DNA of 64,000 bases from a virus. Its lineage: Duplodnaviria; Caudoviricetes. The notes below the pieces were generated by a model. It had not been told where the DNA came from, made no database searches, and saw nothing but the letters and a program-made list of their open reading frames with translations. Each line of letters opens with the position of its first letter. Position 1 is the stretch's first letter. The translations under genes and the position numbers were made by a program. Shown one piece after another: positions 8,861 through 47,679 of this stretch. Location: the IMG/VR virus record IMGVR_UViG_3300048598_000287, positions 128,001-192,000 of that record, one strand, 5' to 3'.

Positions 8861-8912
8861 ATAAGATTTGCGGAAGAAACCATCTGAACTTTAGCCAGGA
8901 AATGGGAATCCA
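8861..8912 (+). mobile_element. Degenerate IS200/IS605-like left-end remnant
   Basis: TTTAT then ATAAGATTTGCGGAAGAAA, an imperfect hairpin with a CTTTAG loop, then GAATCC; same start as copies at 22621, 42444, 45154 and 47671. Confidence 0.5.
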
Positions 8913-10562
8913 TTAATTTGACGCTTCAACCATTGCGCCAAGCTTGTGCTGTTCCTGCATTGCCTCTGGTGACTTTATGTAATCTATCGCATCCACATAT
9001 TTAGCCCTCATGTCATCGGTAAGACGTAGCTGCTCCTGCTCGGTAAGTATTTCGATTTCCTCATAATTACCATAATAGAACGTAGACTGCAGATAATATA
9101 TAGCCCAGTATAGCGCGGTCACGTGGTCATCATGCATTCCTCCGCTACCTCCCCATACATTGCTAGTCTTCTGCGTGAACGACATTAGTTCCATTATCGT
9201 CAATTTATCTTTTACCTGGATATATCCTCTCTGGACATACATTTTGAGAAGAACGACGACCTTGCTCTTCATAGTAGGCGTGGCCCAAAGCCCGCGGCAC
9301 ATATTATCAAAATTGATTATATTAGGATATTGGGCGACGGTAAAGAAATAGTTATACGCGCAGCTTCCCGGACCGTTGTATTCTATTATGAGATATGGAA
9401 ACTGATAAAAGCGCAACATGATGTTAGCTATATGGCAAAAGTCATTTATGCTTACCGTGTTGGAAGACATGGTAAATACCTGTTCGCATTTAATATTGCT
9501 TTTCGCGAGAAGTATGTGCAAAACATGAGAATCCTTTCGTATTCCGAACCCGGTATCAATAGATGCGACATATGAATATCCCCGCGATTCGACATTTTTC
9601 TCCGGCCATTTGAAGACGCGCATTGATATGTCGTTCGTTATTGACTTTAGATTCTCCGGCCATATAGATCCGTCAAACTTAAGAGGTTCCATCGCCTTAA
9701 GCTTTTCCAGACATCGGTAATCGATGAGCGTGATGCTGGATCCTATGAATTCGCATTCATATTCCTGGCGGAATCTCTGATCTCCGACCTTTTCTCGTTC
9801 TGCTGCTGCCCATTCTTCAGTATGGCTAGGCACCTGATTCCATATCACCGTGGATTTAATGTATCGGTTCTTTGCGCCATCCTTTTCGGCAACCTCTTCA
9901 TCGATGGCCTTGCACCACATGTCATAAAAATGGTTCATTCCCTTTGGGGTGGACGTTATGATACAACGGGTCGTGTTTCCGGACGATATGGCGGGAAACA
10001 CCGATGCCATGAATTCCTCGGCGAGGCCAGACCGTAGAATGGCGAACTCGTCAAGATATAGAAGATTGATAGCGAATCCGCGGATGTTATCCGGAGAGGA
10101 TGAGGATACTATTATTCTGCTGTTGTTTGACAGTTGAATGGATGTTTTGTTCCATAGTTTAACTCCGGGTTGAAGCCACATAGGGAGCTTACTATATGAG
10201 TCACGGAGCTGCTGCATCTGTTCCTTGGCAAGGGAAAGTTTGTTTCCTATCATGGCGACAAGCTGATCCTTATGGAAAATAACCCACCATAGGATAAATC
10301 CGCGCACTACGGTGGATTTTCCTACCTGTCTTGACCATTTGTTTATGTTGAACCTATATTTCAAGAACCTACGTATCGCACGTTCTTGAAAATCATATAG
10401 GGCGAATAGCTGAGATCCATGGTCCAGCGTATTTATATACACATAATGCCGGATGAAATATATCGGGTCAAGGGCGCATTTCTTAAGCTCCTTTAGCTGA
10501 GTCATGGTGACTCTGACAGGTTCGTTCGCGTCCCGTAATCCTAATATTCCGTTAAATGCCAT
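8913..10562 (-). CDS. terL: Terminase large subunit (T4 gp17-like)
   Basis: DPIYF, Walker A SRQVGKS, Walker B LLYLDEFA, ITSTPKG, FRQEYECEF, HDDHV nuclease motif. Confidence 0.95.
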   Translation of the reverse strand: MAFNGILGLRDANEPVRVTMTQLKELKKCALDPIYFIRHYVYINTLDHGSQLFALYDFQERAIRRFLKYRFNINKWSRQVGKSTVVRGFILWWVIFHKDQLVAMIGNKLSLAKEQMQQLRDSYSKLPMWLQPGVKLWNKTSIQLSNNSRIIVSSSSPDNIRGFAINLLYLDEFAILRSGLAEEFMASVFPAISSGNTTRCIITSTPKGMNHFYDMWCKAIDEEVAEKDGAKNRYIKSTVIWNQVPSHTEEWAAAEREKVGDQRFRQEYECEFIGSSITLIDYRCLEKLKAMEPLKFDGSIWPENLKSITNDISMRVFKWPEKNVESRGYSYVASIDTGFGIRKDSHVLHILLAKSNIKCEQVFTMSSNTVSINDFCHIANIMLRFYQFPYLIIEYNGPGSCAYNYFFTVAQYPNIINFDNMCRGLWATPTMKSKVVVLLKMYVQRGYIQVKDKLTIMELMSFTQKTSNVWGGSGGMHDDHVTALYWAIYYLQSTFYYGNYEEIEILTEQEQLRLTDDMRAKYVDAIDYIKSPEAMQEQHKLGAMVEASN

Positions 10563-10564
10563 TA

Positions 10565-12196
10565 CTATTTACCTAATATGTATTTGTTATATTCAGCTTG
10601 CGTCATGTTATGCGCAGCCAGAGTTCCGTTATGCAACTTATTAAGACGGCGTCTTTCATCCGCCTTCTGTTGCAGTGCGGATATTTCATTGTGTGAACAC
10701 TGGAATGCGTAATCAGCATCTTCCGGAGAAAGTTTTTCCTTCTCTCCTGTAGTCGGATCCTTATACCACCCTCTCACCAGCATCCCCTTGACCGAATCAT
10801 CTCCCGAATTATACCATTTAGTTATAGTATCCTTCCCGAAAGACTTTACAGATGCCTGTGCCGATTCGGATGATGCATCATTGGATTTGCCTGGATTTCC
10901 TACCGATTTTCCTGCGACCGCATTAGCTGACGATGCTGTTAATTCGTTACCATAATCCTGCTGCCCATGAGTAATATCGTCGCCTCCAACTGAACCCAAT
11001 TCGCCCAATCTTGACTGACCTCTGGTATTAGGATTCATCGCCCGTTCGGCATATATTTTCCTGTCTTCCGGAACCATCAGGAAAGCCGGGGCCGGCATAT
11101 ATTTCATATATTCACTGTTTGGATCAGATAGCATCTTTTTAAGAAGCGCCTTCCCGTTTTCATTCACTGGATTATAATTTAGATCAAGACCGGTGTTAGC
11201 CGAAAAATATTTTCCGAACAATTGTTTGTCTGTTATGGTTGAGTTTCTGTCAAATCCCATGCTTGCATAATATTTATCTTTATCGATAACTTTTCCTGAC
11301 TTATCCTCTCCTTCCATTCCTAGCTGCGTGGAACTTTTTGACGCAAGCGTGGATGCGTCACTGATTCTAAGCTTAGCGGCAAAATCAGGAAGGAAATAAG
11401 TAGTGTAATAATATGATTTAAATTCTTCAAGCATTTCTTGTTTGGCTTTTTCCGTGTTTATATAAAACAGATCGGAATGTTCATCCCAGTACGTTTCGAA
11501 CTTTTTCATGAACTCATCGTTAGCCTTCTTGTTTATTACCGTCTTTCCCTGAGAATCCATGCCAATTGAATAATTAAAATATTCCTTTGGGTGAGATTTG
11601 GCCAGCACAGGATCCGTTATGTTAAGCTCGGAATCAAACCCGTAATTATTCTGCAAAGACTCCTGGGAATCTCGGGAGCCAACTCCGGACGCCCCGAAAT
11701 TTATGGGAAACTGCGTTGCAATCGCGTCCAATTTATCAAGAAGCGTTCCGGACGTAGCATTCATTATTCCGATGGCTTTATCAGCCGATGAAGAGATACT
11801 GGCACTTCCAGGAAAATTTTTCGCCACTTTATTGCTTATTGCATTTTGCGCGGTCTCCATTGCTGCCTGTTCTTCGGCCGCCTTTCCATATTCTTCATGC
11901 ATTTTATAAATTCCCCTGGCCACATCAACTAATCCCCATGCGATAGACGCTATATATAACACGGCTCCAATTCCAGGCACTCCGATCACGGCGCTTTTCT
12001 TTCCTATGAAGCAGCCGAGAACCATCAGTCCGACGCCCATTCCCATATTAAGCACACCGTCTGCGCTTTCCAGTTCAGGTGACGAATATATTTCCTTATG
12101 CAGGCTAATTATCGTGCCAACTGAATCTGGATCAAGCCCGTAAATATCTTTAAGGGAATTTTCGAACAGTATGTATTTTTCATTGTTTGATAACAT
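10565..12196 (-). CDS. Leader-tagged protein with two predicted transmembrane helices
   Basis: LFENSLKDIYGL..TIISLHKEIY..LESA followed by a Gly-rich hydrophobic hairpin. Confidence 0.7.
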   Translation of the reverse strand: MLSNNEKYILFENSLKDIYGLDPDSVGTIISLHKEIYSSPELESADGVLNMGMGVGLMVLGCFIGKKSAVIGVPGIGAVLYIASIAWGLVDVARGIYKMHEEYGKAAEEQAAMETAQNAISNKVAKNFPGSASISSSADKAIGIMNATSGTLLDKLDAIATQFPINFGASGVGSRDSQESLQNNYGFDSELNITDPVLAKSHPKEYFNYSIGMDSQGKTVINKKANDEFMKKFETYWDEHSDLFYINTEKAKQEMLEEFKSYYYTTYFLPDFAAKLRISDASTLASKSSTQLGMEGEDKSGKVIDKDKYYASMGFDRNSTITDKQLFGKYFSANTGLDLNYNPVNENGKALLKKMLSDPNSEYMKYMPAPAFLMVPEDRKIYAERAMNPNTRGQSRLGELGSVGGDDITHGQQDYGNELTASSANAVAGKSVGNPGKSNDASSESAQASVKSFGKDTITKWYNSGDDSVKGMLVRGWYKDPTTGEKEKLSPEDADYAFQCSHNEISALQQKADERRRLNKLHNGTLAAHNMTQAEYNKYILGK

Positions 12197-13298
12197 TATT
12201 CACCCCTCCTTTAAGGCTTAGCACGTATTTCACGAATTCTGCTATGACGGTGGCGGAAACTCCAGTATTTTTTAACTTTCCATCAATTACGCCATATAAT
12301 ACATCCGCGGTTGATTTGACCTCTTCTGAAGCACCAGGAATCACGGAAGACAATGCAGCGGCGGCTTCCTGTGATAATCCTGACGATTTTCCTATTGTTC
12401 CCAGATGCAGCCATCTTGTTCCAACATATAGGCCTTGCCCGAATCCGCTGAATTCAGCATCGGGAGCATTTTTCATTTCTTCCGGAAGACTAACCGAGGT
12501 GTCATTCATTTTAAGAAGTTTGCTTCCGGCGCATTCTCCAACAAAAGAATTGAATTCCTTCACGCCGTTTTCATCATGGCACCACATGGCTGGGCAAAGC
12601 TTACCGGTCACATTATAATGCATGTATATGTTTTTTTCATCGATGGAATATTTATCCATAAGCCATCGTACCAGTTTCTTTGTGTTTTCTTTCACTGCAT
12701 CGGTGAAATTCCAGTCATGTTCTTCCGGCTGTGGATGATCCACCTTTTTGGTTTTAGAACTACACATTTCTATCGATATTGAATTTTTATTCATTATTTT
12801 TCCATACATCGCTGCAAATCCGGATGCTTTCGGATTAGCCATCGTTTGCTTCTCAGATCCCACGGCCATGGCTTCCATATTGGCGGGATCAGGATTATAT
12901 TGATAAATCTCACTGTCATCGACGATAAAATCAGCGGCAGTATGCTGAAGTTCTCCATTTTTATCATTAGGGCTTCCTTTTGCGAAAAATCCAGCGACAG
13001 ACAACGCTGCACCGCTTCCTGATGACTGACTTGCCGTGTAATGAAGAACTATATATGATATTTTCCTGTTTGGCGCCGAAATTATTCCACTTGCTGATTT
13101 GTCTGAATTTACCTTAACATTGAATTCATCCCCAGATGATGCCATTTTATTGTTTTCATTCTTATCGGATCCGGAAGCGGTTTTATTATCATCGTCTGAA
13201 GCCTCCATAAGAGATCGATAGATCGATACAATGGCAGATTTACGTATTCCATCTATTGATGGATTATTTTCAATCGATTCTACGAAGATGTCTTTCAT
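12180..13298 (-). CDS. N-acetylmuramoyl-L-alanine amidase (Amidase_2) with the shared leader
   Basis: YIVLHYTA, SISIEMC and HYNVTGKLCP zinc-ligand/catalytic motifs. Confidence 0.85.
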   Translation of the reverse strand: MKDIFVESIENNPSIDGIRKSAIVSIYRSLMEASDDDNKTASGSDKNENNKMASSGDEFNVKVNSDKSASGIISAPNRKISYIVLHYTASQSSGSGAALSVAGFFAKGSPNDKNGELQHTAADFIVDDSEIYQYNPDPANMEAMAVGSEKQTMANPKASGFAAMYGKIMNKNSISIEMCSSKTKKVDHPQPEEHDWNFTDAVKENTKKLVRWLMDKYSIDEKNIYMHYNVTGKLCPAMWCHDENGVKEFNSFVGECAGSKLLKMNDTSVSLPEEMKNAPDAEFSGFGQGLYVGTRWLHLGTIGKSSGLSQEAAAALSSVIPGASEEVKSTADVLYGVIDGKLKNTGVSATVIAEFVKYVLSLKGGVNNVIKQ

Positions 13299-13325
13299 GT
13301 GTGCGTTTATAGATATTTCAATAAC

Positions 13326-13384
13326 TAGTTTATATAAGATTTGAGGGATGCTGAAGTTTTCTTCTGCGAATCTTATATAAACTA
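13326..13384. promoter_or_regulatory. Divergent pair of late promoters
   Basis: TAGTTTATA at 13326-13334 and TATAAACTA at 13376-13384, between divergent genes. Confidence 0.7.
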
Positions 13385-13415
13385 CTTATGTAAACATGCA
13401 TTATAGGAACGAAAT

Positions 13416-14126
13416 ATGGACATGTTCAATTTGCCTACAGAAAAAGAACTTCTTGGAGAGGTGAAAGCACATCTGGAATCCAAGAAGCCAGTGAAAACCC
13501 TAGACGCCAATGATGTATTCCCATTCTGGAACGCGTCATCCGTCACTAACAGCGTGGACGAGATGCGCAAGCCAGGAAGAATGACCGTCATGAAAAATGA
13601 TAAGGTGGGATCGATAGGCCCAGTAAAGCAATCGTCTCTGGAACGCATCAAAGGCCATAAGACTACGGTAAGTGAAGCCAAAAAAGAGCCGGAAGTCAAG
13701 ATGGAAGGAACGTCGGGAACCCCGAAGTTCAAACCGGTTGTGGTTAATACCGACACTATCTATACGATTAAGGGATCTCCAGTCGGATCGATTAAACCGA
13801 TAAAGGCAGGCGAGTCCATATCGGCTAATGAAATGAAGACAATCATACGAAGCATTAAGGAAAATCGCATGCCTGACCGTGTAGGTATAGTTAAGCCACA
13901 GAAATCGCCTACTCTAAAGATTGGCGGAAAAAATGATTTCGGCGTCGTTACGAGTTCAAAGCCATTGAAAAATCCGGATCCAAAGGCATATGCGAAATAT
14001 GTCACAAAGGACCTTAAAAACAAAACGGATGAAAAATTGGTTGAACTAGGTAAGCCGGAATATCTCAAAGCTCCTAGCAAGGCCTCTGCCGACAGTCTTG
14101 TCGGATCGATAAAGACAAAGAAGTGA
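13416..14126 (+). CDS. Lys/Pro-rich basic late protein
   Basis: AGGA SD, late promoter, repeated VGSIxPxK-like segments. Confidence 0.7.
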   Translation: MDMFNLPTEKELLGEVKAHLESKKPVKTLDANDVFPFWNASSVTNSVDEMRKPGRMTVMKNDKVGSIGPVKQSSLERIKGHKTTVSEAKKEPEVKMEGTSGTPKFKPVVVNTDTIYTIKGSPVGSIKPIKAGESISANEMKTIIRSIKENRMPDRVGIVKPQKSPTLKIGGKNDFGVVTSSKPLKNPDPKAYAKYVTKDLKNKTDEKLVELGKPEYLKAPSKASADSLVGSIKTKK

Positions 14127-14130
14127 ACAT

Positions 14131-14856
14131 ATGGCAGAATCGTCTTCACAGGCGTTTCCCACAACCAGGGAACTTAACCGCAATCTATGCAGGAACCCGG
14201 TGCCGGTGCACCAGGGATTCATTCGTTGCCGGATCGGAGATCTTCCCGTATCATATGATCCGAATTATGATGGGAAACATCCTGTGGATGACGTTACCAA
14301 AGCTCACACTGCACCTGCGCCAGAGGTCATTAATGCCAACATACAGTCATTCACTTTTCCTGGACTGGGATTATCGTATGCCGGAGAATATCATTATAAG
14401 TTCAGAACATTAATTCCTACCACAGAAGATAATGAATATTTGTACGACACGATAAGTGTGACAATGCTTGCCGACGATTACTATGAAAATTACTGGGCGA
14501 TAAACCGATATATGGAAACCATACAGAGTGGACAGACGGACGCGTATCCAATTCTTGATCATAATCATAGGGTATATGGATATAACCATCGGTACAGAAA
14601 CCGCCTCATGTGGATACCTTATATCGAATTCCATTTGGGTGATGACAGGGCACAGCAACACATGATAATCAGATATTACCGGTGTTCTCCGACATCACTC
14701 AGTTCACTTACCATAACTCCGGGAAGTGTTTCACCGGTGACGTTCTCGTTATCATTTAAATATCAGATAAGAAAGATCATACGCCTGCCTGATCCGAATA
14801 GCATACTGTCCGCCATATGTGTCGTCACTGGCGGGGAAACAAGTAATTCATATTAG
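14131..14856 (+). CDS. Tail tube terminator / tube-fold protein (gp3-like)
   Basis: NIQSFTFPG..YDTISVTMLADDYYENY..PTSLSSL..SFKY. Confidence 0.6.
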   Translation: MAESSSQAFPTTRELNRNLCRNPVPVHQGFIRCRIGDLPVSYDPNYDGKHPVDDVTKAHTAPAPEVINANIQSFTFPGLGLSYAGEYHYKFRTLIPTTEDNEYLYDTISVTMLADDYYENYWAINRYMETIQSGQTDAYPILDHNHRVYGYNHRYRNRLMWIPYIEFHLGDDRAQQHMIIRYYRCSPTSLSSLTITPGSVSPVTFSLSFKYQIRKIIRLPDPNSILSAICVVTGGETSNSY

Positions 14857-14864
14857 GGGGACAT

Positions 14865-15863
14865 ATGGCAAACACCAGGACTCAGTTCGATAATATACAG
14901 ACAATTTCTCCTATAATGCATGATCCAGATAAACCATCTGATACATATATCGGAAGTTTTCTTAAATATGCGTCCGGATTTACGGCAAACAAGTTTCACA
15001 TAGGATTGCGTGGAGAATACGTAGAAAAGGCACTCACTATAATGCAGAGAAATGCATCCACTGATAAATATACATCTGCGCCGAATCTTTTTCATCAGAC
15101 CGCCCAATTAAAAAGAGAATTCGGCGAATGGGTGAAATTTCATTGGAATAACAATGACCGGATGTTAAATATGTACTGGAATTGTGAATCGGTCACCCTT
15201 CCGGTTCCAACGCTGGACATGCTGACTATGAATTGCATAGATTCCGTAAAGGGCATGACTTTCTCCGTCCCGGGAAAAATTCCTGCTGGAAAGCTTTCAT
15301 TAAAAATCGTTGATAATTCATATCTCATGTGGTTTAATTTTTTCAATGCCCTGTTTAACGCGCAAATTTCGCCACTTGTATTACGTGCAAAATCCGGATT
15401 TCATAAGATTGACATAAATGTAGAGCTATTAGGAGGAAACGCGGCATATAACGATGACAATTCAGTTAAAATAACTGATCTAGACGTCCTCCAGGTATCA
15501 GAATATAATTCCGCGGTGATCATTTCAGCTCCTATAATAAATCCGGATAATTCCAAAGCGGATTTAGCTGGTTTCACCGTTGACTTTAACGTGCCTAACC
15601 CTCTTAATGGAACATTCAAAAGAAGTGATAGAGGAATGATGGACAATACGACGGTGTCATCAACTATGTTAAAGGCTACAAAAACCGGTATGGACTATGA
15701 CCCTGGGTTCTGGGAACGCACCAGAAATAACATGACACAGAATGCATTGAGCTATGAATCATTAAATGCAACGGAAGAAAAGGCATTCAATGAACGTATA
15801 GCTAAAAATGGCAATGGATTTCCATTTAATTCAGCAGATTATGGAAATACATCATTTGATTAA
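14865..15863 (+). CDS. Tail tube initiator-like baseplate protein (gp54/gp48 fold)
   Basis: NKFHI..CESVTLP..tube-fold pattern; position in a late operon. Confidence 0.4.
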   Translation: MANTRTQFDNIQTISPIMHDPDKPSDTYIGSFLKYASGFTANKFHIGLRGEYVEKALTIMQRNASTDKYTSAPNLFHQTAQLKREFGEWVKFHWNNNDRMLNMYWNCESVTLPVPTLDMLTMNCIDSVKGMTFSVPGKIPAGKLSLKIVDNSYLMWFNFFNALFNAQISPLVLRAKSGFHKIDINVELLGGNAAYNDDNSVKITDLDVLQVSEYNSAVIISAPIINPDNSKADLAGFTVDFNVPNPLNGTFKRSDRGMMDNTTVSSTMLKATKTGMDYDPGFWERTRNNMTQNALSYESLNATEEKAFNERIAKNGNGFPFNSADYGNTSFD

Positions 15864-16904
15864 TGTATTTATTTTCTGCTGAAGATTAAGGGTCTTGAAT
15901 TTTCCATATAAAGGAAGTATCCTGGAATAGGCATCATACACCCGAAGATTATTTTTTGTCATGGGTATCTCGGACATAGGAATGTCAGAAATTGCCTTTA
16001 TTCTTTCTGAATATAATTTACGGACATCACATCCATGTTTGCTTATTCCCCAGTAGTCAGACTTCGGAGTCCTTACAAAGCCATCATCTAATTCGCTTAC
16101 ATAGTCAGGATATTCAGTGACCGGCACTGAATTCATGATGCATCGGTCAAACATTCCATTTCTATATCCGAGATAATAATCGACCCGGTTATCCATAAAA
16201 GTCACGTATTCCCGCCGTCTGTTTGTAAGAATATCATAACATTCATCTTTATCGGCTTGATGCACCGATATATTGTTATCGTTAAGTATTTTTTGGCAGA
16301 TTTCATTATAACTTATCGTAGGTCGATACCATTTTTCAACGCCGTCGAAATCTATTTTATTAAGATTGAATTCATAGAGATACCCGTTAAGTGTAAGCTC
16401 GCTGGTTGAAATACCGGACCATCTGGTATTGCTTGTGTTTCGCACAATGCTATCGACGAACCATTTAGGCATGCATTGCTTATACATAGAAATCAATCTT
16501 GTCGGAGAATTTCCTTTATTCTGCAGAATTTCCTGCACTTTGCCATCGTGGTATCCATCGGATGCCGCCTTCCATTCATCCATGTCATCAAAACTAATCT
16601 TGCTAAGCGGGAATTGTATCAGCCCATTCTTGCTAGTCTTAAACGTTATATCATCATATGGAATATACATGTATTCGCAATCAGGAACCTCTTCGAATTT
16701 TAATTCCGGCAGGATTGCCGTTAGTCGTTTCGCATCATCAAGAGAAACATAATCATTATATTTGTCAAGCGGTTCTCCAAGTTTTCCTGTACTGTAAAAC
16801 GATACGTCATTTTCAGGATTCATCGCTATATTATGTGCTTCTATAACGGCGTCTATCGTATATCCTACTACTATTCTCTTTATGTTATGCTCTTTTAATT
16901 CCAT
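15852..16904 (-). CDS. Divergent UDP-galactopyranose mutase-like protein
   Basis: NTRWSGISTSEL, YRPTISYNEICQKIL and RVDYYLGYRNG parallel Glf motifs; the GxGxxG motif is replaced by VGYTIDA. Confidence 0.5.
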   Translation of the reverse strand: MELKEHNIKRIVVGYTIDAVIEAHNIAMNPENDVSFYSTGKLGEPLDKYNDYVSLDDAKRLTAILPELKFEEVPDCEYMYIPYDDITFKTSKNGLIQFPLSKISFDDMDEWKAASDGYHDGKVQEILQNKGNSPTRLISMYKQCMPKWFVDSIVRNTSNTRWSGISTSELTLNGYLYEFNLNKIDFDGVEKWYRPTISYNEICQKILNDNNISVHQADKDECYDILTNRRREYVTFMDNRVDYYLGYRNGMFDRCIMNSVPVTEYPDYVSELDDGFVRTPKSDYWGISKHGCDVRKLYSERIKAISDIPMSEIPMTKNNLRVYDAYSRILPLYGKFKTLNLQQKINTLIK

Positions 16905-16907
16905 GAT

Positions 16908-17360
16908 TCATTTCTCCTTTGACATCGACATAGCTCGGTCAAGACCAATATTTTCCTGTATATACGAAAGAATATGCTTATTAAGCCATTTTACATCAGG
17001 AAGTCCAGTGAATATGTCAAATATCTTTCCATCCGGATCGCAGAATATATGCATTGGCTTGAGGGTAAATCCAAGATCGGTGTACACTTTGCATTTTTCC
17101 GGTTCAGGTTCCACTATTATCTTTACCATGGCGTTAGCGTTATCTAGAAGGCCTTTTTTATAAAACCAGTCGTTAATATCGGAGAGCGACGATTTACAGC
17201 GTGGGCAATCGGAATTCCCGTCATAAAAAATAAACATCCACATCAGTGTTCGGCAGGATGAATAATCTTTATACACCTCGTTTCCAAAATCAAGAAGACG
17301 TTTCGCTAATGGCTTATACAGCCCGACATCTATCTTATCTCCACAGCATAATTTACTCAT
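16908..17360 (-). CDS. Thioredoxin-fold protein
   Basis: FIFY...CPRC motif and PMHIFCDPDGK..FTG. Confidence 0.65.
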   Translation of the reverse strand: MSKLCCGDKIDVGLYKPLAKRLLDFGNEVYKDYSSCRTLMWMFIFYDGNSDCPRCKSSLSDINDWFYKKGLLDNANAMVKIIVEPEPEKCKVYTDLGFTLKPMHIFCDPDGKIFDIFTGLPDVKWLNKHILSYIQENIGLDRAMSMSKEK

Positions 17361-17398
17361 ATTACCGCATACCGTTCACCAAGGTAAAGTATATTTTT

Positions 17399-18709
17399 TC
17401 ATACGCTAGCGTTAATCCGCATGCCGTCCGGGAATTTTATCTTTTTCAGCTCGGCGGACACATCTTTAGGCCGTCCAGTCAGAAGATTAGCGGATCCTAT
17501 TGTGAATATGGAATGGAGGTCTTCATTTCCTGAATCCCTACCATATTCGTCTTTTCCATCCTTTATAAGAACCTTTTCCATGATCACATATTCATCGGAA
17601 TAGATTTCATCAGGAAGCCCGGCATCGTCGATCCTGTCTTTCTGCTTGCTATATACATACACAGACGATCCGACATCCGGACCTACGGTATTGGCAAGAG
17701 AAATAGTCATCTTTTTTCCTAATGTAGCTATGTATCTTCTGCGTATGACCGGAGCTATCTGATACATGTTATGCGTGTTAAGGGGATAGTCGCGTATAAG
17801 ATATGAATTTCCGAAAGAATATCCGGATGGACCGAAACAGTTCTCTATGTCGGATTGATTCGTATATCCTGCCCCCTTAAGCAGTTTGCCGAAACATTCA
17901 TTGTCGCATCGTCCGACATCCGGCTTATTGCCTTCAAAAGATGAGTACACTATGTTTGGAAACAAATCCTGCTTATTTTCGCCGGCATCATTGTATCTTG
18001 ATTCTCTATTGAAAAACCATGCCTTGTAATTAGACGTGCTGTCAAAATAGCTGGAATTTGAGCCGGTCTGATAAGCATCTTTATAATATGTGAACATCTG
18101 ATGAGGATAATATGTCTTTGATGTCCCTATGCTTGAAATTATAAAGTTACATTTATCGGTGGAAAATGTATAATATAGGTAATCTCCTTCCATGAAGGAA
18201 TGCTCCCCTATTTCTCCAAGTGACCCTTCCATAGTGCTCTTTATGCATACCCAGTTCATCTTGTCATTGCTGGAATTTGATGTTATTGTGTTTATCGGTT
18301 CCGGAATGCCGCTGGTTTTCATGATCTGAGTCATCACTTCCGGAGCGGTACCGTATTTCTGTACTGTACGTGTATTGTACATATCAAACGACCCTAGATG
18401 GTACAATACGTTCATATAGTAATTGTTCGTTCCAGGGATAGAAATGATCGGCGGCATGTTATCAACTATGAACGTAAGCGTGGTATCGTTCATGTACTTT
18501 GATCCAGTATGGTTCATTTTCATAAGGCCATATTCACCGCTATGAATTATAAATCCTGGGTCATTGTTGCACATTATCTGAAATGACCCATATGGAACCT
18601 GATTCATTGGTATTTTCATGGTGAATTTTCGTATAGACGCCTGGGTATATTCTCTCCCCATGAGGAATACGTCTATAGTTATGTTGTCTATTGAACTTGT
18701 ATCAAGCAT
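17399..18709 (-). CDS. Probable baseplate hub protein (gp27-like)
   Basis: Size, beta-rich pattern and position after gp48- and gp53-like genes. Confidence 0.35.
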   Translation of the reverse strand: MLDTSSIDNITIDVFLMGREYTQASIRKFTMKIPMNQVPYGSFQIMCNNDPGFIIHSGEYGLMKMNHTGSKYMNDTTLTFIVDNMPPIISIPGTNNYYMNVLYHLGSFDMYNTRTVQKYGTAPEVMTQIMKTSGIPEPINTITSNSSNDKMNWVCIKSTMEGSLGEIGEHSFMEGDYLYYTFSTDKCNFIISSIGTSKTYYPHQMFTYYKDAYQTGSNSSYFDSTSNYKAWFFNRESRYNDAGENKQDLFPNIVYSSFEGNKPDVGRCDNECFGKLLKGAGYTNQSDIENCFGPSGYSFGNSYLIRDYPLNTHNMYQIAPVIRRRYIATLGKKMTISLANTVGPDVGSSVYVYSKQKDRIDDAGLPDEIYSDEYVIMEKVLIKDGKDEYGRDSGNEDLHSIFTIGSANLLTGRPKDVSAELKKIKFPDGMRINASV

Positions 18710-18725
18710 TGGTATCTCCGGTGAA

Positions 18726-19157
18726 TCATTTCATGTTTGGATCGTATTTTTCTATCCAGGTAAGCGCGCCCTGTAATGTAGGAAGAGACAATAGTCTCCC
18801 CTGCGTTACTTCACTGACTACCCCATTAAACAGATTATTATAATGGGTCCAGTATTCGGTAGTTATCTCCAATTCATCCATGGCATTTTTATATTCTGTC
18901 TCAAGCGCAGCATCCCGGTATCCTTTAAGATACAGCTCATTATATACGCTTTCGGATATTATCCGTACAGAATCCCGGCAAGGAAGCGGGTTCCTGATTC
19001 CATTGGCCGCGCATAGCGCCTTGCACATTCGGCTACTTCCAAGAGCACGTCTGGCTATTATGTCAGGCCTTCCCTGTTCATATCCATATACAGTGGTAAA
19101 ATCCTGTACTCCTTCTTTGTCATCTCTAAATCTTGGAAATTCCGATGTAGTTCCCAT
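18726..19157 (-). CDS. Baseplate wedge protein (gp53-like, LysM-type)
   Basis: GRPDIIARRALGS..LCAANGIRNP motif. Confidence 0.6.
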   Translation of the reverse strand: MGTTSEFPRFRDDKEGVQDFTTVYGYEQGRPDIIARRALGSSRMCKALCAANGIRNPLPCRDSVRIISESVYNELYLKGYRDAALETEYKNAMDELEITTEYWTHYNNLFNGVVSEVTQGRLLSLPTLQGALTWIEKYDPNMK

Positions 19158-19172
19158 GGCATCCTCCTATTA

Positions 19173-20609
19173 TCAGCTTCCGCGTAAAGGATAAAATATA
19201 TTGTCCCCTATGAACCGGATGAAATCGTGATTTGGACCAGGGGTTAACCATGTCTCAAATCCTATCTTGGCAGACACCGTAATAGGAATATGTGCGCCAA
19301 GCCTATTGACGAAAAGTTCCTTTGACGATGATATAGTTATATCGGATATTACCAACGGCTCAATGTCAAGTATGTTTCCTACGGTGAGTCGCACCGGTTG
19401 CGGAACCAGAGTAACATTATATCCAAAAAAATCCTGCGCAGCAAAAAAAGTATCAAGAAGATTCGATACCACATCCGACGTGGCGGTAATGACATTGTTC
19501 TTCTGATTATTAGAAAATTTACCGGTTTTTGCTTCCTCCTGATTCTGTGTAATCTTATTTGAAAGCGGAGTCAATACATCATTAGCCCATGATCCTAATG
19601 TTCCGGCAAGACTGCCAGCGATAGAACTAGTCATTCCGGCAGCGGTATCTACGGCAGAAATATCATTCCCGCTAAGCGCCGTATTTTTAAGCTGACCGAT
19701 GCTTTCCGCGCTTGCCTTAGCGGAATCCGACAAAGCGCCTAATTCAGTAGTCATATCTCCTAGAGAATCAAACGATTGCATGGCAGCGCTGCTCGTGGCT
19801 TTAGCTAATCGTTTTCCTAACGTAGAGCTTTTATCTCTATATAAATCACGGACATAACCTATCTGTAAAAGCCTGTGCAATGAAAGCCGGAACAAATCTT
19901 CCTGCTCAGGCAAATACCATTGTATGGTTATTGATCGTTTGAAATCAAACTTAGAGCCATTGAATCCCTTCATTGTAGAACTTCCTGTGCTTGACGAGTC
20001 AAGTCCATACAATGACATTATCCCGGCGCCTTCCGATCCATTAGCCGCATTTTTTGAAGATCCGGGTGATAATGCCGACCCTATCATTCCCATGCCGCTA
20101 TGAAGTTTTCCTATTAATCCGCTTTGCTGATTCTGTGTAAATGCATTTATGGCAGAAAGAGCCCCTCCTACCGCCGCTCCGCCAGTAAAGCCATTGGCAT
20201 TTCCGGTTGCGGCTTCTCCGATGTTTGCGCCAAGAGGCATCAGAACGGCAGGAGATCCAAGCGCATTAAACGCGGCGGTTATGTTCTGTTCAGCAGTCTG
20301 TTCAGACCATGCATTTGTCAACCCAATGGTTAAATTTGTCAAATCATCCGGAGACATTATTCCATAAAACGGTTTGAACGGTTCAGAATTAAGCTGTTCA
20401 GCTATTCTGTATTTAAGCGCATCAACCGTGCGATGGATGGCTCCTAGATATGCCTGCCGTGCATGAAAGCCAAGCGGTTCTATACGTATCACGTTCGGAT
20501 ACAATTCCGAGGTAGAATTATGTACCGGTTCATTAGCGTCAGCCTTATGCGACGCCCGTGGCATATACCGGTTGCTATCAGTAAATGTTGCATCATTATC
20601 ACTTATCAT
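19173..20609 (-). CDS. Baseplate/tail tube cap protein (gp48-like)
   Basis: FKRSITIQWYLP and PQPVRLTVG..VISDITI..IPITVSAKIGFE tube-fold motifs with long insertions. Confidence 0.45.
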   Translation of the reverse strand: MISDNDATFTDSNRYMPRASHKADANEPVHNSTSELYPNVIRIEPLGFHARQAYLGAIHRTVDALKYRIAEQLNSEPFKPFYGIMSPDDLTNLTIGLTNAWSEQTAEQNITAAFNALGSPAVLMPLGANIGEAATGNANGFTGGAAVGGALSAINAFTQNQQSGLIGKLHSGMGMIGSALSPGSSKNAANGSEGAGIMSLYGLDSSSTGSSTMKGFNGSKFDFKRSITIQWYLPEQEDLFRLSLHRLLQIGYVRDLYRDKSSTLGKRLAKATSSAAMQSFDSLGDMTTELGALSDSAKASAESIGQLKNTALSGNDISAVDTAAGMTSSIAGSLAGTLGSWANDVLTPLSNKITQNQEEAKTGKFSNNQKNNVITATSDVVSNLLDTFFAAQDFFGYNVTLVPQPVRLTVGNILDIEPLVISDITISSSKELFVNRLGAHIPITVSAKIGFETWLTPGPNHDFIRFIGDNIFYPLRGS

Positions 20610-22261
20610 TAGTTACCTCTGCGCGTCATATCAGTTACCGCATCAAGATACTGAGCATCATATGCACGCCGTTCATTGCTATTTACTAGATGATCGGTAA
20701 CAGATTTACCTATCGCATCAGCCAATGCTTTTATGTCCGAATCCGATAGAGATGATTGCTGAAACATCTGAACGGTACTGTAATCCATTGGCATTTCCCT
20801 TTCCATATCTTCCTTTATGGTTCTTTCCTTATCATCGGGAATTTCTACATTGGGTTCTGGTTCATATAATCCATCCATGGTGGTATCAACATTAGTGCTG
20901 TCCGGCTCATTGTCGCCAATTATTTGCTCTTTAGAAGATGTATCTGGCATATTTGTGTCATAGTCTGATTTTTCTTGGAAATTCTGTATGCCGGGTCTAA
21001 TCTCTTCATCGACTTCATTATCGTCAATGATTGACGGAGGATTTACCTTATCCATGGCAATGTCATGATCCATATCCATCAAATCAGCCATATTGATAGC
21101 AGAATCGTTTTCTGTGGAATATGTTTCATCTGAGTTTACCGGAGACTCTTCTGAAACATCCTTAGGCTCATCAGTAAGGCTAGGTTCAATCTTATCAGCC
21201 TGTGCAGGAGAATTATCATCTTTAGGAAAGCCATCAGTCATTGCATCGGTCAATGCGGCTATTGAATCCTTTGATATATCTATCGGAGATGGAATGATAT
21301 CAGAAGGGTTATTCTCTTCTGTAGCCTCTTCTTCTTCAGTGGCAAACCCTTCCTGCACATCCGAATCAAGCGCAGAAGATAATCCATAAATAGAGTCGGA
21401 TACATTTTTTAGAGAATCTGTTATAGCATCATATTTTTTAGTGTAATCTATCGTTCTAGGAACAGCATATTCATTGTGTTCCTGCTCTGCCATAGGTTCC
21501 TTGTCATCGGATGTTTCATCGGGAATTTCCTTATCTGTGACAGGCTGGCCTATATTCTGCTCCGATATCTGAACCGGCACTGCGGAAGGAAGTTTCTCCA
21601 GGATTCCATTCTGCTTATCTATGGAAGTTATCATTCCATTCATTAGTGAAGAAAGTTTACCTAATTCATCATTCTGTTCGTATTCGTCATCGGAATGTTC
21701 GGGAAGATTCACATTTACTTTTACATCAGGAGGATTGATTAATTCACTTTTTTGATTAATTTCTTCCTGCATGTCATCATCAGGGGATTCATCATCTTCG
21801 GGAAGCGATTTTTCTATATCCTGCTCAGGAATAGTCAAATCCTTTATAGAGGATAAAAGTTCATTCTGCGTTTCTGATATATCTTTAAGAGTGATCCCTA
21901 TTTCTTCCCTGGATTCCGAATCATTGCCATTGTTCGCATCTGCCGCTGAATTTGACTCGTGTGATTTATTTTCATCGTCTTTATTGTTCTTGTATAAAGA
22001 ATATATACTATTCATGGAAGAATTAAGCTCGCTGTCATCCAGAGCACCGCCGAATCCGTCTATTATTCTATTTGCCAGCTCTTCATTTCCAGACTGTGAT
22101 TTTTCAAGATAATCATTAAGCGTATAGGAAGATTGCTCAGCAAAATCCTTCTTTTCAGTATTTACCTTTTCAGAAAATGCCGCAGCTAATTTATCGGCGA
22201 TAGTGACTATGTCATTGTCGCCGATGGTAGCAGGTGCTTTTGTCGTATTTGCTTCAGCCAT
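20609..22261 (-). CDS. Highly acidic low-complexity late protein
   Basis: 550 aa, D/E-rich; own late promoter at 22285-22293; heads the baseplate operon. Confidence 0.65.
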   Translation of the reverse strand: MAEANTTKAPATIGDNDIVTIADKLAAAFSEKVNTEKKDFAEQSSYTLNDYLEKSQSGNEELANRIIDGFGGALDDSELNSSMNSIYSLYKNNKDDENKSHESNSAADANNGNDSESREEIGITLKDISETQNELLSSIKDLTIPEQDIEKSLPEDDESPDDDMQEEINQKSELINPPDVKVNVNLPEHSDDEYEQNDELGKLSSLMNGMITSIDKQNGILEKLPSAVPVQISEQNIGQPVTDKEIPDETSDDKEPMAEQEHNEYAVPRTIDYTKKYDAITDSLKNVSDSIYGLSSALDSDVQEGFATEEEEATEENNPSDIIPSPIDISKDSIAALTDAMTDGFPKDDNSPAQADKIEPSLTDEPKDVSEESPVNSDETYSTENDSAINMADLMDMDHDIAMDKVNPPSIIDDNEVDEEIRPGIQNFQEKSDYDTNMPDTSSKEQIIGDNEPDSTNVDTTMDGLYEPEPNVEIPDDKERTIKEDMEREMPMDYSTVQMFQQSSLSDSDIKALADAIGKSVTDHLVNSNERRAYDAQYLDAVTDMTRRGN

Positions 22262-22284
22262 ATTCCGCCGGTAAATTCATTAAC

Positions 22285-22293
22285 TAGTTTATA
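22285..22293 (-). promoter_or_regulatory. Putative late promoter TATAAACTA
   Basis: Motif about 24 nt upstream of ATG 22261. Confidence 0.7.
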
Positions 22294-22368
22294 ATGCCGG
22301 CAAGATTTAATGTCGATATCATGAATGGAAATAGTTCGCCATATTTGAGCCGCTTTTCTCAACCCTGT

Positions 22369-22525
22369 GTGAACCACTCCTGTCATAAATGGCAGGAGCT
22401 TCTTTTCGCTTCAATGGTGTCTACGTGCTGGTTTCATTTCTGAAGCCATCTAGAGGCAGTTACCTCGGCAGAGGACCGTTCAGGTCGCTCAGCTTTAGAT
22501 TAACGTGGAATGCCGTTCCACAACT
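22369..22525 (-). ncRNA. Candidate omegaRNA/reRNA-like scaffold
   Basis: Right-end 150 nt with several stems, ..CCATTGAAGCGAAAAGAAGCTCC.. and an upstream TATATT motif; structure not computed. Confidence 0.4.
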
Positions 22526-22621
22526 TTGATAGTTTTCAGCATCAATGATAATATATATTTTTCTATGGTGGAATTCTTCTCTCCATACTAACGCCCAGGC
22601 ATTTTCTTCCGCGAATCTTAT
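22369..22621 (-). mobile_element. Non-autonomous IS200/IS605-like element (253 bp, no tnpA/tnpB)
   Basis: Begins after TTTAT with ATAAGATTCGCGGAAGAAA..GAATTCCAC and ends GAAGCTCCTGCCATTTATGACAGGAGTGGTTCAC (hairpin plus TTCAC); homologous to 42444-42544. Confidence 0.7.
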
Positions 22622-22629
22622 ATAAACTA
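22621..22629 (+). promoter_or_regulatory. Putative late promoter TATAAACTA
   Basis: Upstream of ATG 22667; overlaps the element junction. Confidence 0.7.
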
Positions 22630-22666
22630 TTTTATATAATAATATGATTATCAGGCATATGACCGT

Positions 22667-24382
22667 ATGGCAAAGTGCATAACTGACGTAATATCTCCTA
22701 GGCAAGGCAATTCATCGACTGATGGTGATGACGCCATTCTTAGCAGCTTCACGGAAGCTGTTAACAAGGCAGCTAATTCAGTATATGATGCATCGTCTAA
22801 ACTGGAAGCCACGAATTGCACAAAGATAGTGTTTGACTGGTGCAAGGACACTATGGGAATAAACGCGTATACGGCAGTGGATGCGCTATCTAAAATGAAG
22901 TTCGGCATAAAACAATTCAATTCATATAATTATCCGGTAAATCTTAGCAAAATAAAGCTTTCCGATAATTTTTGCCAAATGCTAAGCACATGGATAGCAT
23001 GGATACAAGAATCAATCGATATATCGACCAAGGCTGCATTTGCCCTTTTCATTAAAATAGATGCTGCTCGAATGAGATTAGAAACCGCGACGCTTAATTT
23101 TAATACCGCCATATTAAAATGCCTGTCTGATATACTTTCTGATCTTAAAATATCCGCCGGCATAGGAGTTGATGTAGGCGTATCAGCGTCTCTTTCGTTT
23201 GACTGGGATGAACTATATCTGATAATGGTTGATTGTCCATGCTTTTGCAGAGCTATATCCTGTGTGACAGGATGCAACACGGATTCTTCCGGAAACGACA
23301 CTTCACGGGATCCTGATTATGTCATATCATGTCTTAAAAGCAAATTTTCAATAGGAACAGAACTAAACCTTGGAATAGGGCTTACCGGATCAATGAATGA
23401 TCTCCTGTTTGATTTTCTGTATAAGCTGTATATGGCAATCCAGACCGCCATAGAGATGACATTTGAACTCCTCATGCAGCCATTGCGGGCATTAATAAAG
23501 GCATTCGCCGATCTTCTTACACAGAAGTTTGACGTATCGCTATTCATAAAGACGCTCGGGAACTTTGAATGCTTCTTTAACTACAGCCTGGAATATAAGC
23601 ATAATAAAGAATTTTACGGAATGTCAATAATAGACATGATAAATACATTCAAGGGATGGACACAATGCTTCAATCATCTATGCCCGTCGCTTGCAAAGGA
23701 TGTGGAAGCTAAGTTAAAGGACATCAATGAAAGTCTTCGACTTAATGATTCTTTTTGGACAGGGGCGCTTGAAGCGGATCTGTATAGTATATGCATTGCC
23801 ACTAAACTTGGGTACGCCAGCTTTTCCAGTTATGAGATGAGGGAAATATACAGGGACAATCCAAAATCTAAGTTTGATTCCTTGCTATCTGAGCTAAAAG
23901 CTACAGGAATAAAGAACCTATGCACAGAATACAAAAGAAAAAATGCATATAAAAGGGTATCTCAAAGAAGTGCCACGGAAGATGCAATTTTATTTCGCAC
24001 TGCACCGGATAGAGAAAATGAAGTTAACGTAGGAGAAATTCCAATTTCTTCCAGCGAAGAAAAAAAATGCGTCACGATGGCGAAGAACCTCATCGATAAG
24101 ACCGTAAGCCCGTATTTCACAGAAAAATTTTATCAGCTTCTCCGGCTTCTTTCTGATTATGCAATGGATTCTGATACTGTAAATGATCTTACAAAAATAT
24201 TGGATAACAGCAGCAAAAAGACATATCCTGCAGGATTCAGTAAAAAATTCACCCCGTTCCCAGGAAACATAACGGGTAGAGAAGAACTTTCCGTATATCC
24301 GGATGACACCGAAGTGTCATATGAATTAACTGATGACTATGATGCCGCAGAAATAGAGGAGATCCTCGGCGCATATGCGTAG
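22667..24382 (+). CDS. Cys-rich helical late protein of unknown function
   Basis: 571-aa ORF behind a late promoter, co-oriented with gp4. Confidence 0.7.
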   Translation: MAKCITDVISPRQGNSSTDGDDAILSSFTEAVNKAANSVYDASSKLEATNCTKIVFDWCKDTMGINAYTAVDALSKMKFGIKQFNSYNYPVNLSKIKLSDNFCQMLSTWIAWIQESIDISTKAAFALFIKIDAARMRLETATLNFNTAILKCLSDILSDLKISAGIGVDVGVSASLSFDWDELYLIMVDCPCFCRAISCVTGCNTDSSGNDTSRDPDYVISCLKSKFSIGTELNLGIGLTGSMNDLLFDFLYKLYMAIQTAIEMTFELLMQPLRALIKAFADLLTQKFDVSLFIKTLGNFECFFNYSLEYKHNKEFYGMSIIDMINTFKGWTQCFNHLCPSLAKDVEAKLKDINESLRLNDSFWTGALEADLYSICIATKLGYASFSSYEMREIYRDNPKSKFDSLLSELKATGIKNLCTEYKRKNAYKRVSQRSATEDAILFRTAPDRENEVNVGEIPISSSEEKKCVTMAKNLIDKTVSPYFTEKFYQLLRLLSDYAMDSDTVNDLTKILDNSSKKTYPAGFSKKFTPFPGNITGREELSVYPDDTEVSYELTDDYDAAEIEEILGAYA

Positions 24383-35534: not shown

Positions 35535-35555
35535 TATGTCTCCCATTAACACAAA

Positions 35556-35595: not shown

Positions 35596-35621
35596 TTGCA
35601 AGAATATAACGAGAGAAAAAT

Positions 35622-36056: not shown

Positions 36057-36063
36057 GGTAATC

Positions 36064-36570: not shown

Positions 36571-36572
36571 AA

Positions 36573-37121: not shown

Positions 37122-37208
37122 CAGTTCTCCGTATTTAACTTACATTTACAAACCAACATGGAATATCCATCCTGCTTCATCATTAAAATATATTTTTTTA
37201 CGCGAATT

Positions 37209-42409: not shown

Positions 42410-42443
42410 ATTACGACCACCTAATTTACTGCCAATAGTTTAT

Positions 42444-42544
42444 ATAAGATGTGCGGAAGAAAACTCCCAGACGTTAATCTAAAGTCGAGTGGTCGGAACG
42501 GTCATCCATTGAGGTAATTACCATGTATGACAGGAGTGGTTCAC
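42444..42544 (+). mobile_element. Internally deleted IS605-like element (101 bp)
   Basis: TTTAT then ATAAGATGTGCGGAAGAAAA..ACGTTAATCTAAAG..GAACGGTC..GAGGTAA..ATGACAGGAGTGGTTCAC, colinear with 22369-22621. Confidence 0.7.
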
Positions 42545-43815
42545 AATGCGTGCGGAGTTTGCATCATGTCATTAAGATCGATGACATGCCTTGCATATTT
42601 TTCCGGCGGATTTTTATCACTTCTGGTTTTTACCCACAGTATACGGCCTGCCCGGTATTTTTTAGCAAGGTGAATATCCGGATTGAACTGCATGTCACTC
42701 ACGATAACTATGGCGTCATATCTGGAATGACATTTTTCGAGCATTCTGAACAGGCAATTGCAGTCCGTTCCTCCTCCGGTGGTAGTGGAAAATCGCTTAC
42801 CTGAGACATCGCGTTTATATAGTTTCTTTGGAAGGGTACATTTTGTGTTCCACCAGCAATAATCAAGGGATATTCTTTTTCCAGTGGAAATTATCAATTC
42901 GGCGATCTTTCCTACGGATGATGCCGGCATAGAGTTACTTACATCTCCGGCTATCAATATATTTGACGTATATTCATATCTATGCCCAGGATACATTAGC
43001 CCGAATCGTCTATTGCGTTTCATTCTGGTATCTTCATATCCGCATTCTATTGATTTAGATATGAATCTTTTTATCATTTTTCTGGGGTTTATCTGTTCAT
43101 GAGAAGCGGATATCATGCTTATTGCTCCGGATGATGCCGCATTACCCCATGCAGTGTCTCCTGATATCGCGGCTGAATGAGCTTCCTGAGTTATACATGA
43201 ATCAGATTTCCATTTACCTGCCCTGCTAGTGTCATTTAAGTAAGATGAAAGAGGCGATCCATCGGAATTGCTTTTTGATTCATCAGAGTCATTACCATCG
43301 GAATCTTTTTTACCTGATTCATAGTTTGACAACAGCCTATATAGAATTTCAATACTAACTGAACGGAAATCATAGTCCTTATAAAATTCCGAAAAATAGA
43401 TTCCTCTTATCGTTGATTCCATTTCCGTGACTTTTTTAAGAATCTTGCTATATGCAGGATTATTGACGCCAATGTCACTCATAAGTCCTAATCTAAGCAC
43501 GATAAGGTCGGATGCCTCAAGAGACAGTTTCCTATTGCTATACATTCTATTAGTTACATGCCCTAGCCCTATTCGTACTGCCTCTATATATAATATTACC
43601 GCCATTTCCTGTGGCTCTATTTCCTCTGCAAACTTTTTATTGATCAATATTTTCAGATGTCCGTTATCAACAGAACTGGCAACTGTGGAAACATCTGAAA
43701 ATTCAAATTCGGCGTATCCCAATATTATCTGGGTTATCGGTGCATATCTGAATAATAGATATTTTGCCAGTCTTAGCTGGTATTCTACGTTTTTGCTTGT
43801 GCTTATTGCGTTCAT
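42541..43815 (-). CDS. vWA-domain protein with a degenerate metallopeptidase-like N-terminus (DUF2201-type)
   Basis: MIDAS DVSNS, GGGTD and IVIVSD motifs; the HExxH position reads IEAVRIGLGH. Confidence 0.8.
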   Translation of the reverse strand: MNAISTSKNVEYQLRLAKYLLFRYAPITQIILGYAEFEFSDVSTVASSVDNGHLKILINKKFAEEIEPQEMAVILYIEAVRIGLGHVTNRMYSNRKLSLEASDLIVLRLGLMSDIGVNNPAYSKILKKVTEMESTIRGIYFSEFYKDYDFRSVSIEILYRLLSNYESGKKDSDGNDSDESKSNSDGSPLSSYLNDTSRAGKWKSDSCITQEAHSAAISGDTAWGNAASSGAISMISASHEQINPRKMIKRFISKSIECGYEDTRMKRNRRFGLMYPGHRYEYTSNILIAGDVSNSMPASSVGKIAELIISTGKRISLDYCWWNTKCTLPKKLYKRDVSGKRFSTTTGGGTDCNCLFRMLEKCHSRYDAIVIVSDMQFNPDIHLAKKYRAGRILWVKTRSDKNPPEKYARHVIDLNDMMQTPHAL

Positions 43816-44080: not shown

Positions 44081-44091
44081 TACGACGCGGC

Positions 44092-45057: not shown

Positions 45058-45083
45058 TATCCCGCCATATATCGCGTCAATAT

Positions 45084-45162
45084 CAGTTTATATAAGATTT
45101 GTGGAATTCATCTCTCCGGACTAAAGTCCGGGTATATTCTTTTGTAAATCTTATATAAACTA
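45084..45162. promoter_or_regulatory. Divergent late promoters flanking an IS605-like left-end hairpin
   Basis: AGTTTATATAAGATTT inverted repeat around CCGGAC-TAAA-GTCCGG. Confidence 0.7.
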
Positions 45163-45185
45163 GATAGTGAAACAAGAGAATATAT

Positions 45186-46745: not shown

Positions 46746-46761
46746 TGTTGGAGGATGATAG

Positions 46762-47133: not shown

Positions 47134-47155
47134 ATATATCATAACATCAGGTGAA

Positions 47156-47605
47156 ATGATGAAGGAACTATTCGAATCTTATATAGGTAAGCTTACCATA
47201 CCGGAAACGCTAAAACAGTCAATCATAGACATACATAAAATATGTCTTGAAGCAGAGGAACTTACTCCGGAAGACGAGCAAAAAATGACTGACGTGCCCG
47301 CACCCGGGGACAATTCAGAGGATCCTGCAAAACCGATACGTGATGTGGGAAATCAAATAGTAAATGATGTCAATACCGCTTTTGTAAACCATAAAGGAAA
47401 CGAAGATTTTGATTATAAAACCGCAATCATTGATTCAGTAAAAAGTAAAAAACCCAAAATAGACGAATGTTTAAAACTAAACAAAAACGCATTGACGGCA
47501 ATAGCGACAATAATAGACCGGCAGACTAAGCAGATGGCTGGAGGAAACCGAGTTACATTGGATGAACTTACAAATGCGCTTGGATATCAGCAAAGTAAAG
47601 AATAA
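47156..47605 (+). CDS. Leader-tagged hypothetical protein
   Basis: LFESYIGKLTIP..SIIDIHKICLEA. Confidence 0.75.
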   Translation: MMKELFESYIGKLTIPETLKQSIIDIHKICLEAEELTPEDEQKMTDVPAPGDNSEDPAKPIRDVGNQIVNDVNTAFVNHKGNEDFDYKTAIIDSVKSKKPKIDECLKLNKNALTAIATIIDRQTKQMAGGNRVTLDELTNALGYQQSKE

Positions 47606-47619
47606 TTTACATAATTTAA

Positions 47620-47679
47620 TGAATCGCCACTGAGTTAGTTATATTCAGTGGAATACCTTCACAAATCTTATATAAACTA
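47620..47679. promoter_or_regulatory. Late promoter (47671-47679, +) with an adjacent left-end-like hairpin
   Basis: CCACTGA..TCAGTGG stem followed by ACAAATCTTATATAAACTAG. Confidence 0.65.

Follow-up and report, generated by a model that had tools for sequence, protein, structure and literature searches.

Eight intergenic sites in the genome of a jumbo phage share an extended sequence that begins at the edge of a promoter-like core, which raises the question of whether this sequence belongs to the promoters or was inserted into them. The sites lie in the 64,000-nucleotide stretch analysed here (the window), which comprises bases 128001-192000 of the 277,197-bp IMG/VR virus record IMGVR_UViG_3300048598_000287, whose completeness is estimated at 66%; positions refer to the window unless marked as genome positions. 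The initial annotation read the extensions as ends of IS605-like elements that land inside late promoters and regenerate them. Our analysis makes it very probable that a lineage of the IS200/IS605 family, with tnpB and without tnpA, has inserted at all eight sites and rebuilds the late promoters at which it lands.

The repeated unit is defined by the 14-mer AGTTTATATAAGAT, in which the heptamer AGTTTAT adjoins every listed window copy and TTTAT is followed in all eight by ATA and then AGAT. Exact matches start on the plus strand at 8854, 13327, 42437 and 45085 and on the minus strand at 13383, 22628, 45161 and 47678, which places the first base of the element at 8861, 13334, 13376, 22621, 42444, 45092, 45154 and 47671, the very positions named in the initial annotation. 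All copies are intergenic, and an ATG follows every motif at a distance of 13-39 nt, in the direction in which the motif points. The eight exact copies in the window compare with about 1.8 expected; in 100 shuffles the matches averaged 1.77, the highest count was 5, and none (0/100) reached 9 or the observed count. The whole 277-kb record contains 12 exact copies and four with one mismatch, while the backwards-read control pattern has no match in the genome. When the copies are aligned in one orientation, their similarity runs 40-60 nt past the promoter core. Specifically, the shared extension comprises G-rich sequence up to GGAAGAAAAC, a hairpin whose loop is of the TTTAG type, and GAATTCC(R)C; the continuation (T/G)(T/C)G(C/T)GGAA(GAAA), the hairpin and GAATTCCAC are visible in most copies, as had been described. 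Two copies, those starting at 22621 and 42444, extend as far as 22369 and 42544, where a second hairpin and GGTTCAC close them; these are the two right ends already noted. That chance or base composition in an A+T-rich promoter consensus produced this repeat is hardly conceivable: such an effect could account for the A+T-rich core itself and nothing more, and the shuffles, the control pattern and the length of the similarity past the core all speak against it.

The core at which the extension starts, TATAAACT(A), occurs at about 43 intergenic sites, approximately 2-60 nt upstream of a start codon and oriented to that codon. The late promoter of T4 is an 8-nt sequence, TATAAATA, recognised by gp55 (PMC1524935). 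The window genes encode a T4-type large terminase, tail proteins, lysis proteins and, outside the elements, a gp55-like late sigma factor (56734-57432, minus strand; phrog_234 'late sigma transcription factor', E 1.6e-13), which is the probable reader of the TATAAACTA promoters. By analogy with T4, and given the gp55 homologue and the location ahead of virion genes, we regard the TATAAACT(A) sites as putative late promoters. Four of them, at 3035, 22285, 35556 and 35587, possess the TATAAACTA core and lack the ATAAGAT extension, just as the initial annotation had noted. TTTAT is the antisense of ATAAA inside the gp55-type core TATAAAC; owing to this complementarity, the first A of the element supplies the T of TATAAAC, and the promoter-strand junction reads ...TTAT|ATAAACT. 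Judging from the junction sequence, insertion would be harmless to the late promoter. Two overlapping divergent late-promoter cores can also form a 12-nt palindrome, AGTTTATAAACT, which is carried by relatives of this phage (G001:294887-294898, G002:119845-119856 and similar).

To identify TnpB genes, the whole record was searched with the Pfam TnpB zinc-ribbon domain, and two were found. One of them lies in an intact element of 1,323 bp (genome 45509-46831) that has tnpB and no tnpA. Its product, TnpB1 (398 amino acids; genome 45525-46721, minus strand; L079:226-1422), matches PF07282 with 38 bits and PF01385 with 35.9 bits, as well as solved TnpB structures (E 3e-11 to ISDra2 TnpB). Directly upstream of tnpB1 stand the extension sequence, the hairpin and GAATTCCGCCAT, and downstream a hairpin and TAGTTCAC. 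Low-stringency blastn of the intact element against the genome recovered the window copies via its left end; via its right end it recovered the copy at 22.4 kb, a gene-less 92-nt copy with both ends just upstream of the window (genome 127396-127487) and a lone right end (genome 258071-258121). The initial annotation had called for an intact tnpB/tnpA copy bounded by the same ends: the tnpB element has the same left end and the hairpin-TTCAC right end, and the tnpA half of the expectation failed. The RuvC-like OrfB_IS605 domain and the zinc-ribbon TNB domain that mark an IS200/IS605 TnpB are thus present in TnpB1, and the TnpB of a related locus, L049, matches that of ISDra2, as described below. 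The intact element, its copies on contig L040 (below) and the L049 element have unlike left and right ends, subterminal imperfect hairpins and no terminal inverted repeats, and the hairpins of the left and right ends share the TTTAG-type loop. The left flank is TTTAT in all of the roughly 21 copies (CTTAT once), and neither the intact element nor the three gene-less copies with both ends show a target duplication. These three copies, at 22369-22621, 42444-42544 and genome 127396-127487, have the makeup of PATEs, namely short, non-coding elements with both IS200/IS605-type ends.

The related sequences were retrieved through flanking proteins, and the nearest are 67-77% identical in protein. As had been predicted, empty alleles were found among them, at the terminase, 22.6-kb and 42.4-kb sites. 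The 8861 site is empty in 14 relatives (L001-L014; 70-74% identity) and in four outgroup loci (approximately 54-55%): there the terminase stop lies inside an uninterrupted TATAAACT, and the window has 53-60 extra nucleotides between the core and the gene end. At the 22.6-kb site, the 253-nt element is missing from relatives L071-L078, whose spacer measures 95 nt and holds two divergent promoters. For the divergent pair at 45.1 kb, relatives show an unrelated G+C-rich spacer of about 30-40 nt. About 27 related loci, with 14 different spacer sequences among them, have no element at the promoter at 42.4 kb, which carries a gene-less element of about 115 nt in L052, L053 and L083, and carries a 1,458-bp TnpB element in L049 and L051. 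The TnpB of the latter matches ISDra2 TnpB (E 2e-73) with the RuvC residues D, E and D in place. L066 and L086 represent its exact empty allele, in which TTTAT is joined to the right flank and 73/73 flanking bases are identical. The L049-family element belongs to another left-end family, starting AATG and ending TTCAT, so that this one site has been used by elements of two left-end families. The divergent pair at 13.3 kb has in relatives a different spacer of about 50 nt, which starts with one or the other left-end family; at this orthologous promoter the family depends on the lineage of the relative. Starts of the second family, AATG(Y)(Y)GCGG, also occur at some promoters without ATAAGAT, at genome 195333 (window coordinate 67333, outside the window) and in L001-L027 near locus position 3100. 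The TnpB genes of two further relatives, L102 and L103, were considered as the same element and set aside, being of other families with different ends.

The element is also found in another phage. A scan of viral contigs with a 17-mer from the left end returned 21 loci, of which 20 were chance matches inside genes and L040 alone (IMGVR_UViG_3300048598_000340) was real. L040 contains three copies that are 93-97% identical to the intact element, although the rest of the contig has only weak protein similarity to this phage, which suggests a recent spread of the intact-element lineage. Two of the copies sit at non-promoter TTTAT/CTTAT sites and start CGG or TGG; the third has a late promoter at its left and starts ATA, and its right end adjoins a second promoter. 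An internally deleted TnpB element lies between late promoters on both sides at L040 1120-1500, and without the element this site may have read AGTTTAT|ATAAACT, a palindrome. At L040 12070-12135, a unit of about 45 nt with a left-end start and a terminal TTCAC follows another copy.

These observations bear on whether the ATA after TTTAT is native promoter sequence. In the orthologous promoters of relatives ATAAGAT is absent, and the three bases after TTTAT vary (ACG, AAT, AAC, ACC, ATC, AAA) while the eight window copies have ATA; furthermore, the non-promoter copies begin with CGG or TGG, starts that would destroy a promoter. For these two reasons we read the ATA as part of the insert. Together with the junctions and the empty alleles, this pattern lends support to the earlier proposal that the target lies within the promoter and that the first A restores the core. 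Fixation of the extension at orthologous promoters of distant relatives, which the initial annotation had named as evidence to the contrary, is not what we see; the commonest context there is AGTTTATAAT. Improbable in our view is the alternative that selection maintains the extension at a subset of late promoters as a true operator or upstream binding site, which a TnpB element picked up or landed beside. In relatives without the extension, TATAAACTA stands as far from the gene as it does here; in the intact element and L040 the extension runs unbroken into tnpB and the right end; and copies occur at TTTAT sites that are not promoters. In favour of an operator, the promoter-proximal 20 nt or so are conserved at 79-96% among copies versus about 50% for the distal 35 nt, but this gradient arises in part from the copy-picking procedure and from truncations. 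A palindromic unit at three divergent promoter pairs, as expected for the site of a dimeric protein, and the AAGATTGG-type starts of some relatives at the 13.3-kb pair also fit a regulatory site, and inserted ends may have been co-opted later as part of the promoters. The preference for promoters is strong: 16 of the 18 recognisable genome copies are at AGTTTATA promoter sites, compared with 40 of 143 intergenic TTTAT sequences (binomial P ~1e-7). This bias could reflect selection in a genome with a coding density of 92%, a preference for a target longer than TTTAT, or insertion directed to the opened DNA of promoters.

We then considered the window copies one by one. At 8854-8860 (plus strand), AGTTTAT contains the target TTTAT, the antisense of the late-promoter core of the gene at 8405-8830 (minus strand), and is followed by a gene-less left-end copy of 53 nt from TTTAT to TCCAT (8861-8913, plus strand). 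Its hairpin has decayed (fold z = 0.16), its right edge can be placed to within some 6 nt, and the terminase stop codon TAA (8913-8915) straddles that edge. The copy at 47619-47671 (minus strand), with the left-end start, one hairpin, 3 nt and TTCAT, is also exactly 53 nt long. Both run from TTTAT to a T(C/T)CAT motif 3 nt past a single hairpin, and this 3-nt spacing is the one found at true right ends, which hints at single-hairpin mini-elements. The gene-less, PATE-like element of 253 nt at 22369-22621 (minus strand) consists of a left end, a structured interior and a right-end hairpin with GGTTCAC, and its two ends match those of the intact element. Its interior folds better than shuffles (RNA fold z = -2.1) and may be a guide-RNA scaffold; a search of Rfam gave no family match for it. 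In the element at 42444-42544 (plus strand; 101 nt), 26 nt from the left end are joined to a right end that shares homology with its counterpart in the 22.6-kb copy, and the TGA stop (42541-42543) of an HNH-endonuclease-like gene (42541-43815) lies inside the element's terminal TTCAC. The six other window ends belong to left-end remnants of 43-63 nt, several without a hairpin and none with a recognisable right-end hairpin of its own. Among them, the 43-nt palindromic remnant at 13334-13376 lies between two divergent late promoters, each strand starting like a left end (fold z = -4.6), and the 63-nt unit at 45092-45154, also between divergent promoters, has a full left-end hairpin on the minus strand followed by 9 nt of inverted left-end start (fold z = -3.5). 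As a conjecture, such palindromic units could have formed by insertion of two elements facing each other and later recombination across the palindromic hairpin. The lone right end at genome 258071-258121 (window coordinates 130071-130121, outside the window), a hairpin with TAGTTCAC, stands 14 nt upstream of a late promoter and is oriented to it.

The arrangement of these copies, all of them intergenic, also recalls a different kind of mobile unit. Read along the upstream gene, a hairpin, a T-rich run and then a promoter follow one another, as in a terminator-promoter cassette spread between intergenic regions by homologous recombination rather than by transposition. The PeSL cassettes of T4-type phages are of this type: a sigma-70 early promoter and a stem-loop flank novel open reading frames and spread by recombination. 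Here the promoter is a gp55-type late core, and the repeated part is a transposon end. Its base-exact junctions, TTTAT| and TTCAC|, and the matching empty alleles are unlike the products of cassette recombination. A terminator scan of 8000-24000 flagged no left-end hairpin and flagged the right-end hairpin of the 22.4-kb copy in antisense alone; two copies, at 8861 and 22562, have no significant fold; and a hairpin between divergent promoters would lie in no transcript. With the unflagged left-end hairpins, the weak folds and the intact TnpB element in hand, we dropped the cassette as very improbable.

Several points weigh against insertion by an IS200/IS605-family lineage and have to be set beside the evidence above. 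No Y1 TnpA (PF01797) was found in this record, which is 66% complete, or in five related records, two of which are complete (419 and 422 kb); the missing tnpA argues against autonomy of the intact element, not against its descent from the IS200/IS605 family, which also has non-autonomous members with tnpB alone or with no gene at all. Bacterial genomes gave no close TnpB1 copy and no autonomous element, the nearest bacterial relatives of TnpB1 being 32-39% identical. Several window copies have lost the ability to fold (z about 0 at 8861 and 22562), which makes them relics and not active elements. For the short copies the right end can be fixed to within about 6 nt; in the L049 family, AAT at both junctions leaves the boundaries ambiguous by 3 nt. 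Finally, the window's own copies showed no presence/absence polymorphism, the nearest relatives being 67-77% identical in protein. Searches for closer sequences gave the following: a metagenome scan for sister strains returned none closer than 77% over the full protein and one partial match of 87%; blastn of 8000-14000 against a deposited phage collection had no match; and a viral-contig scan with the right-end 18-mer of the 22.4- and 42.5-kb copies had none either, so that the parent element was not found in these contigs.

Two side observations concern the TnpB proteins. In the TnpB1 clade, which includes proteins from Synergistaceae metagenome-assembled genomes, Q-D-E stands where ISDra2-type TnpB has the RuvC-II E-D-L, with motif I retaining its D and motif III its DRD; either the catalytic glutamate has shifted or the nuclease may be inactive. 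The second TnpB gene of the record (432 amino acids; genome 96072-97370, minus strand; L080:173-1471) has other ends, and a TATAAACTA of its own precedes the ATG by 5 nt. Its product shows no acidic residue at the RuvC-II position in a three-sequence alignment, which is weak evidence.

As for the mechanism, the window elements sit directly 3' of TTTAT as read on the antisense strand of a putative T4-type late promoter. A gp55-type promoter would need the short core alone, and insertion would not disturb late transcription; with 92% of the genome coding, promoter-edge insertions would be the ones to survive selection. Movement could have used a Y1 TnpA acting in trans and encoded by the host or by the third of the genome that is missing from the assembly. 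Alternatively or additionally, the element could be copied between co-infecting phages: TnpB with a guide RNA would cut the empty allele (TTTAT plus right flank), and repair by recombination from the filled genome would then fill it. The predicted guides, the 16-20 nt past each right end, were also compared with this genome for retargeting as in TldR-type repressors; they match their own flanks only and thus give no sign of a regulator role. A more far-reaching version, in which a transposase-less IS605 lineage is confined to a jumbo-phage clade, spreads by TnpB/guide-RNA cutting of empty late promoters and has had its 53-63-nt single-hairpin derivatives co-opted to serve as standard upstream insulators, terminators or regulator sites in about one third of this phage's late promoters, is speculative and, taken whole, rather unlikely.

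If the eight sites are such insertions, a mobile element could persist in a gene-dense virulent phage by having its target motif inside the minimal late promoter and restoring the displaced base. One promoter is found empty, with a gene-less copy or with an intact TnpB element across lineages, which makes RNA-guided homing between phages testable. Conserved 'upstream promoter elements' of these phages may in turn be transposon scars.

Among known systems, ISDra2 uses the target TTGAT and carries tnpA, whereas the phage elements use TTTAT and have no tnpA. The L049 element resembles ISDra2 of Deinococcus radiodurans (structures 8EXA and 8H1J) in its architecture, in the lack of target duplication and in its closely matching TnpB, while TnpB1 is only distantly related to the TnpBs of solved structure. 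TTTAT is the experimentally determined target-adjacent motif (TAM) of ISGst2 TnpB2 from Geobacillus stearothermophilus, and TTCAT that of the related IscB element ISGst5; gene-less PATE-like copies with both ends, possibly encoding guide RNAs, were described in the same work (Meers et al., bioRxiv 10.1101/2023.03.14.532601). Our elements share with ISGst2 and PATEs the TTTAT at the left end, subterminal hairpins at both ends, many copies without tnpA and gene-less copies with both ends, and the ISGst5 TAM resembles the TTCAC/TTCAT that closes the right ends here. Unlike ISGst2, they reside in a virulent-type jumbo phage in which no TnpA was found, and their target lies inside a late-promoter core that is rebuilt.

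Two further comparisons concern the way of life of the element. Free-standing homing endonucleases and intronless homing in T4-like phages have been reviewed (PMC13565253), and the phage elements would by analogy be selfish DNA of a similar sort, possibly spreading between co-infecting phages by cutting of the empty allele and repair copying; here, however, the nuclease would be an RNA-guided TnpB, and the short copies are protein-less. IStrons, in which an IS200/IS605 element is fused to a group I intron, splice out of RNA (PMC4227781). Like them, the phage element appears to be an IS605-family element that makes its own insertion harmless to the host gene, but by landing at a promoter edge and restoring the displaced base rather than by RNA splicing. 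TnpB genes in phages have already been reported, and our literature search returned no description of promoter-embedded TnpB elements or PATEs in phages. In its structural features, tnpA excepted, the element is of the known IS200/IS605 kind; its niche is unusual, with a jumbo-phage host, a target in a minimal late promoter and an end that restores that promoter.

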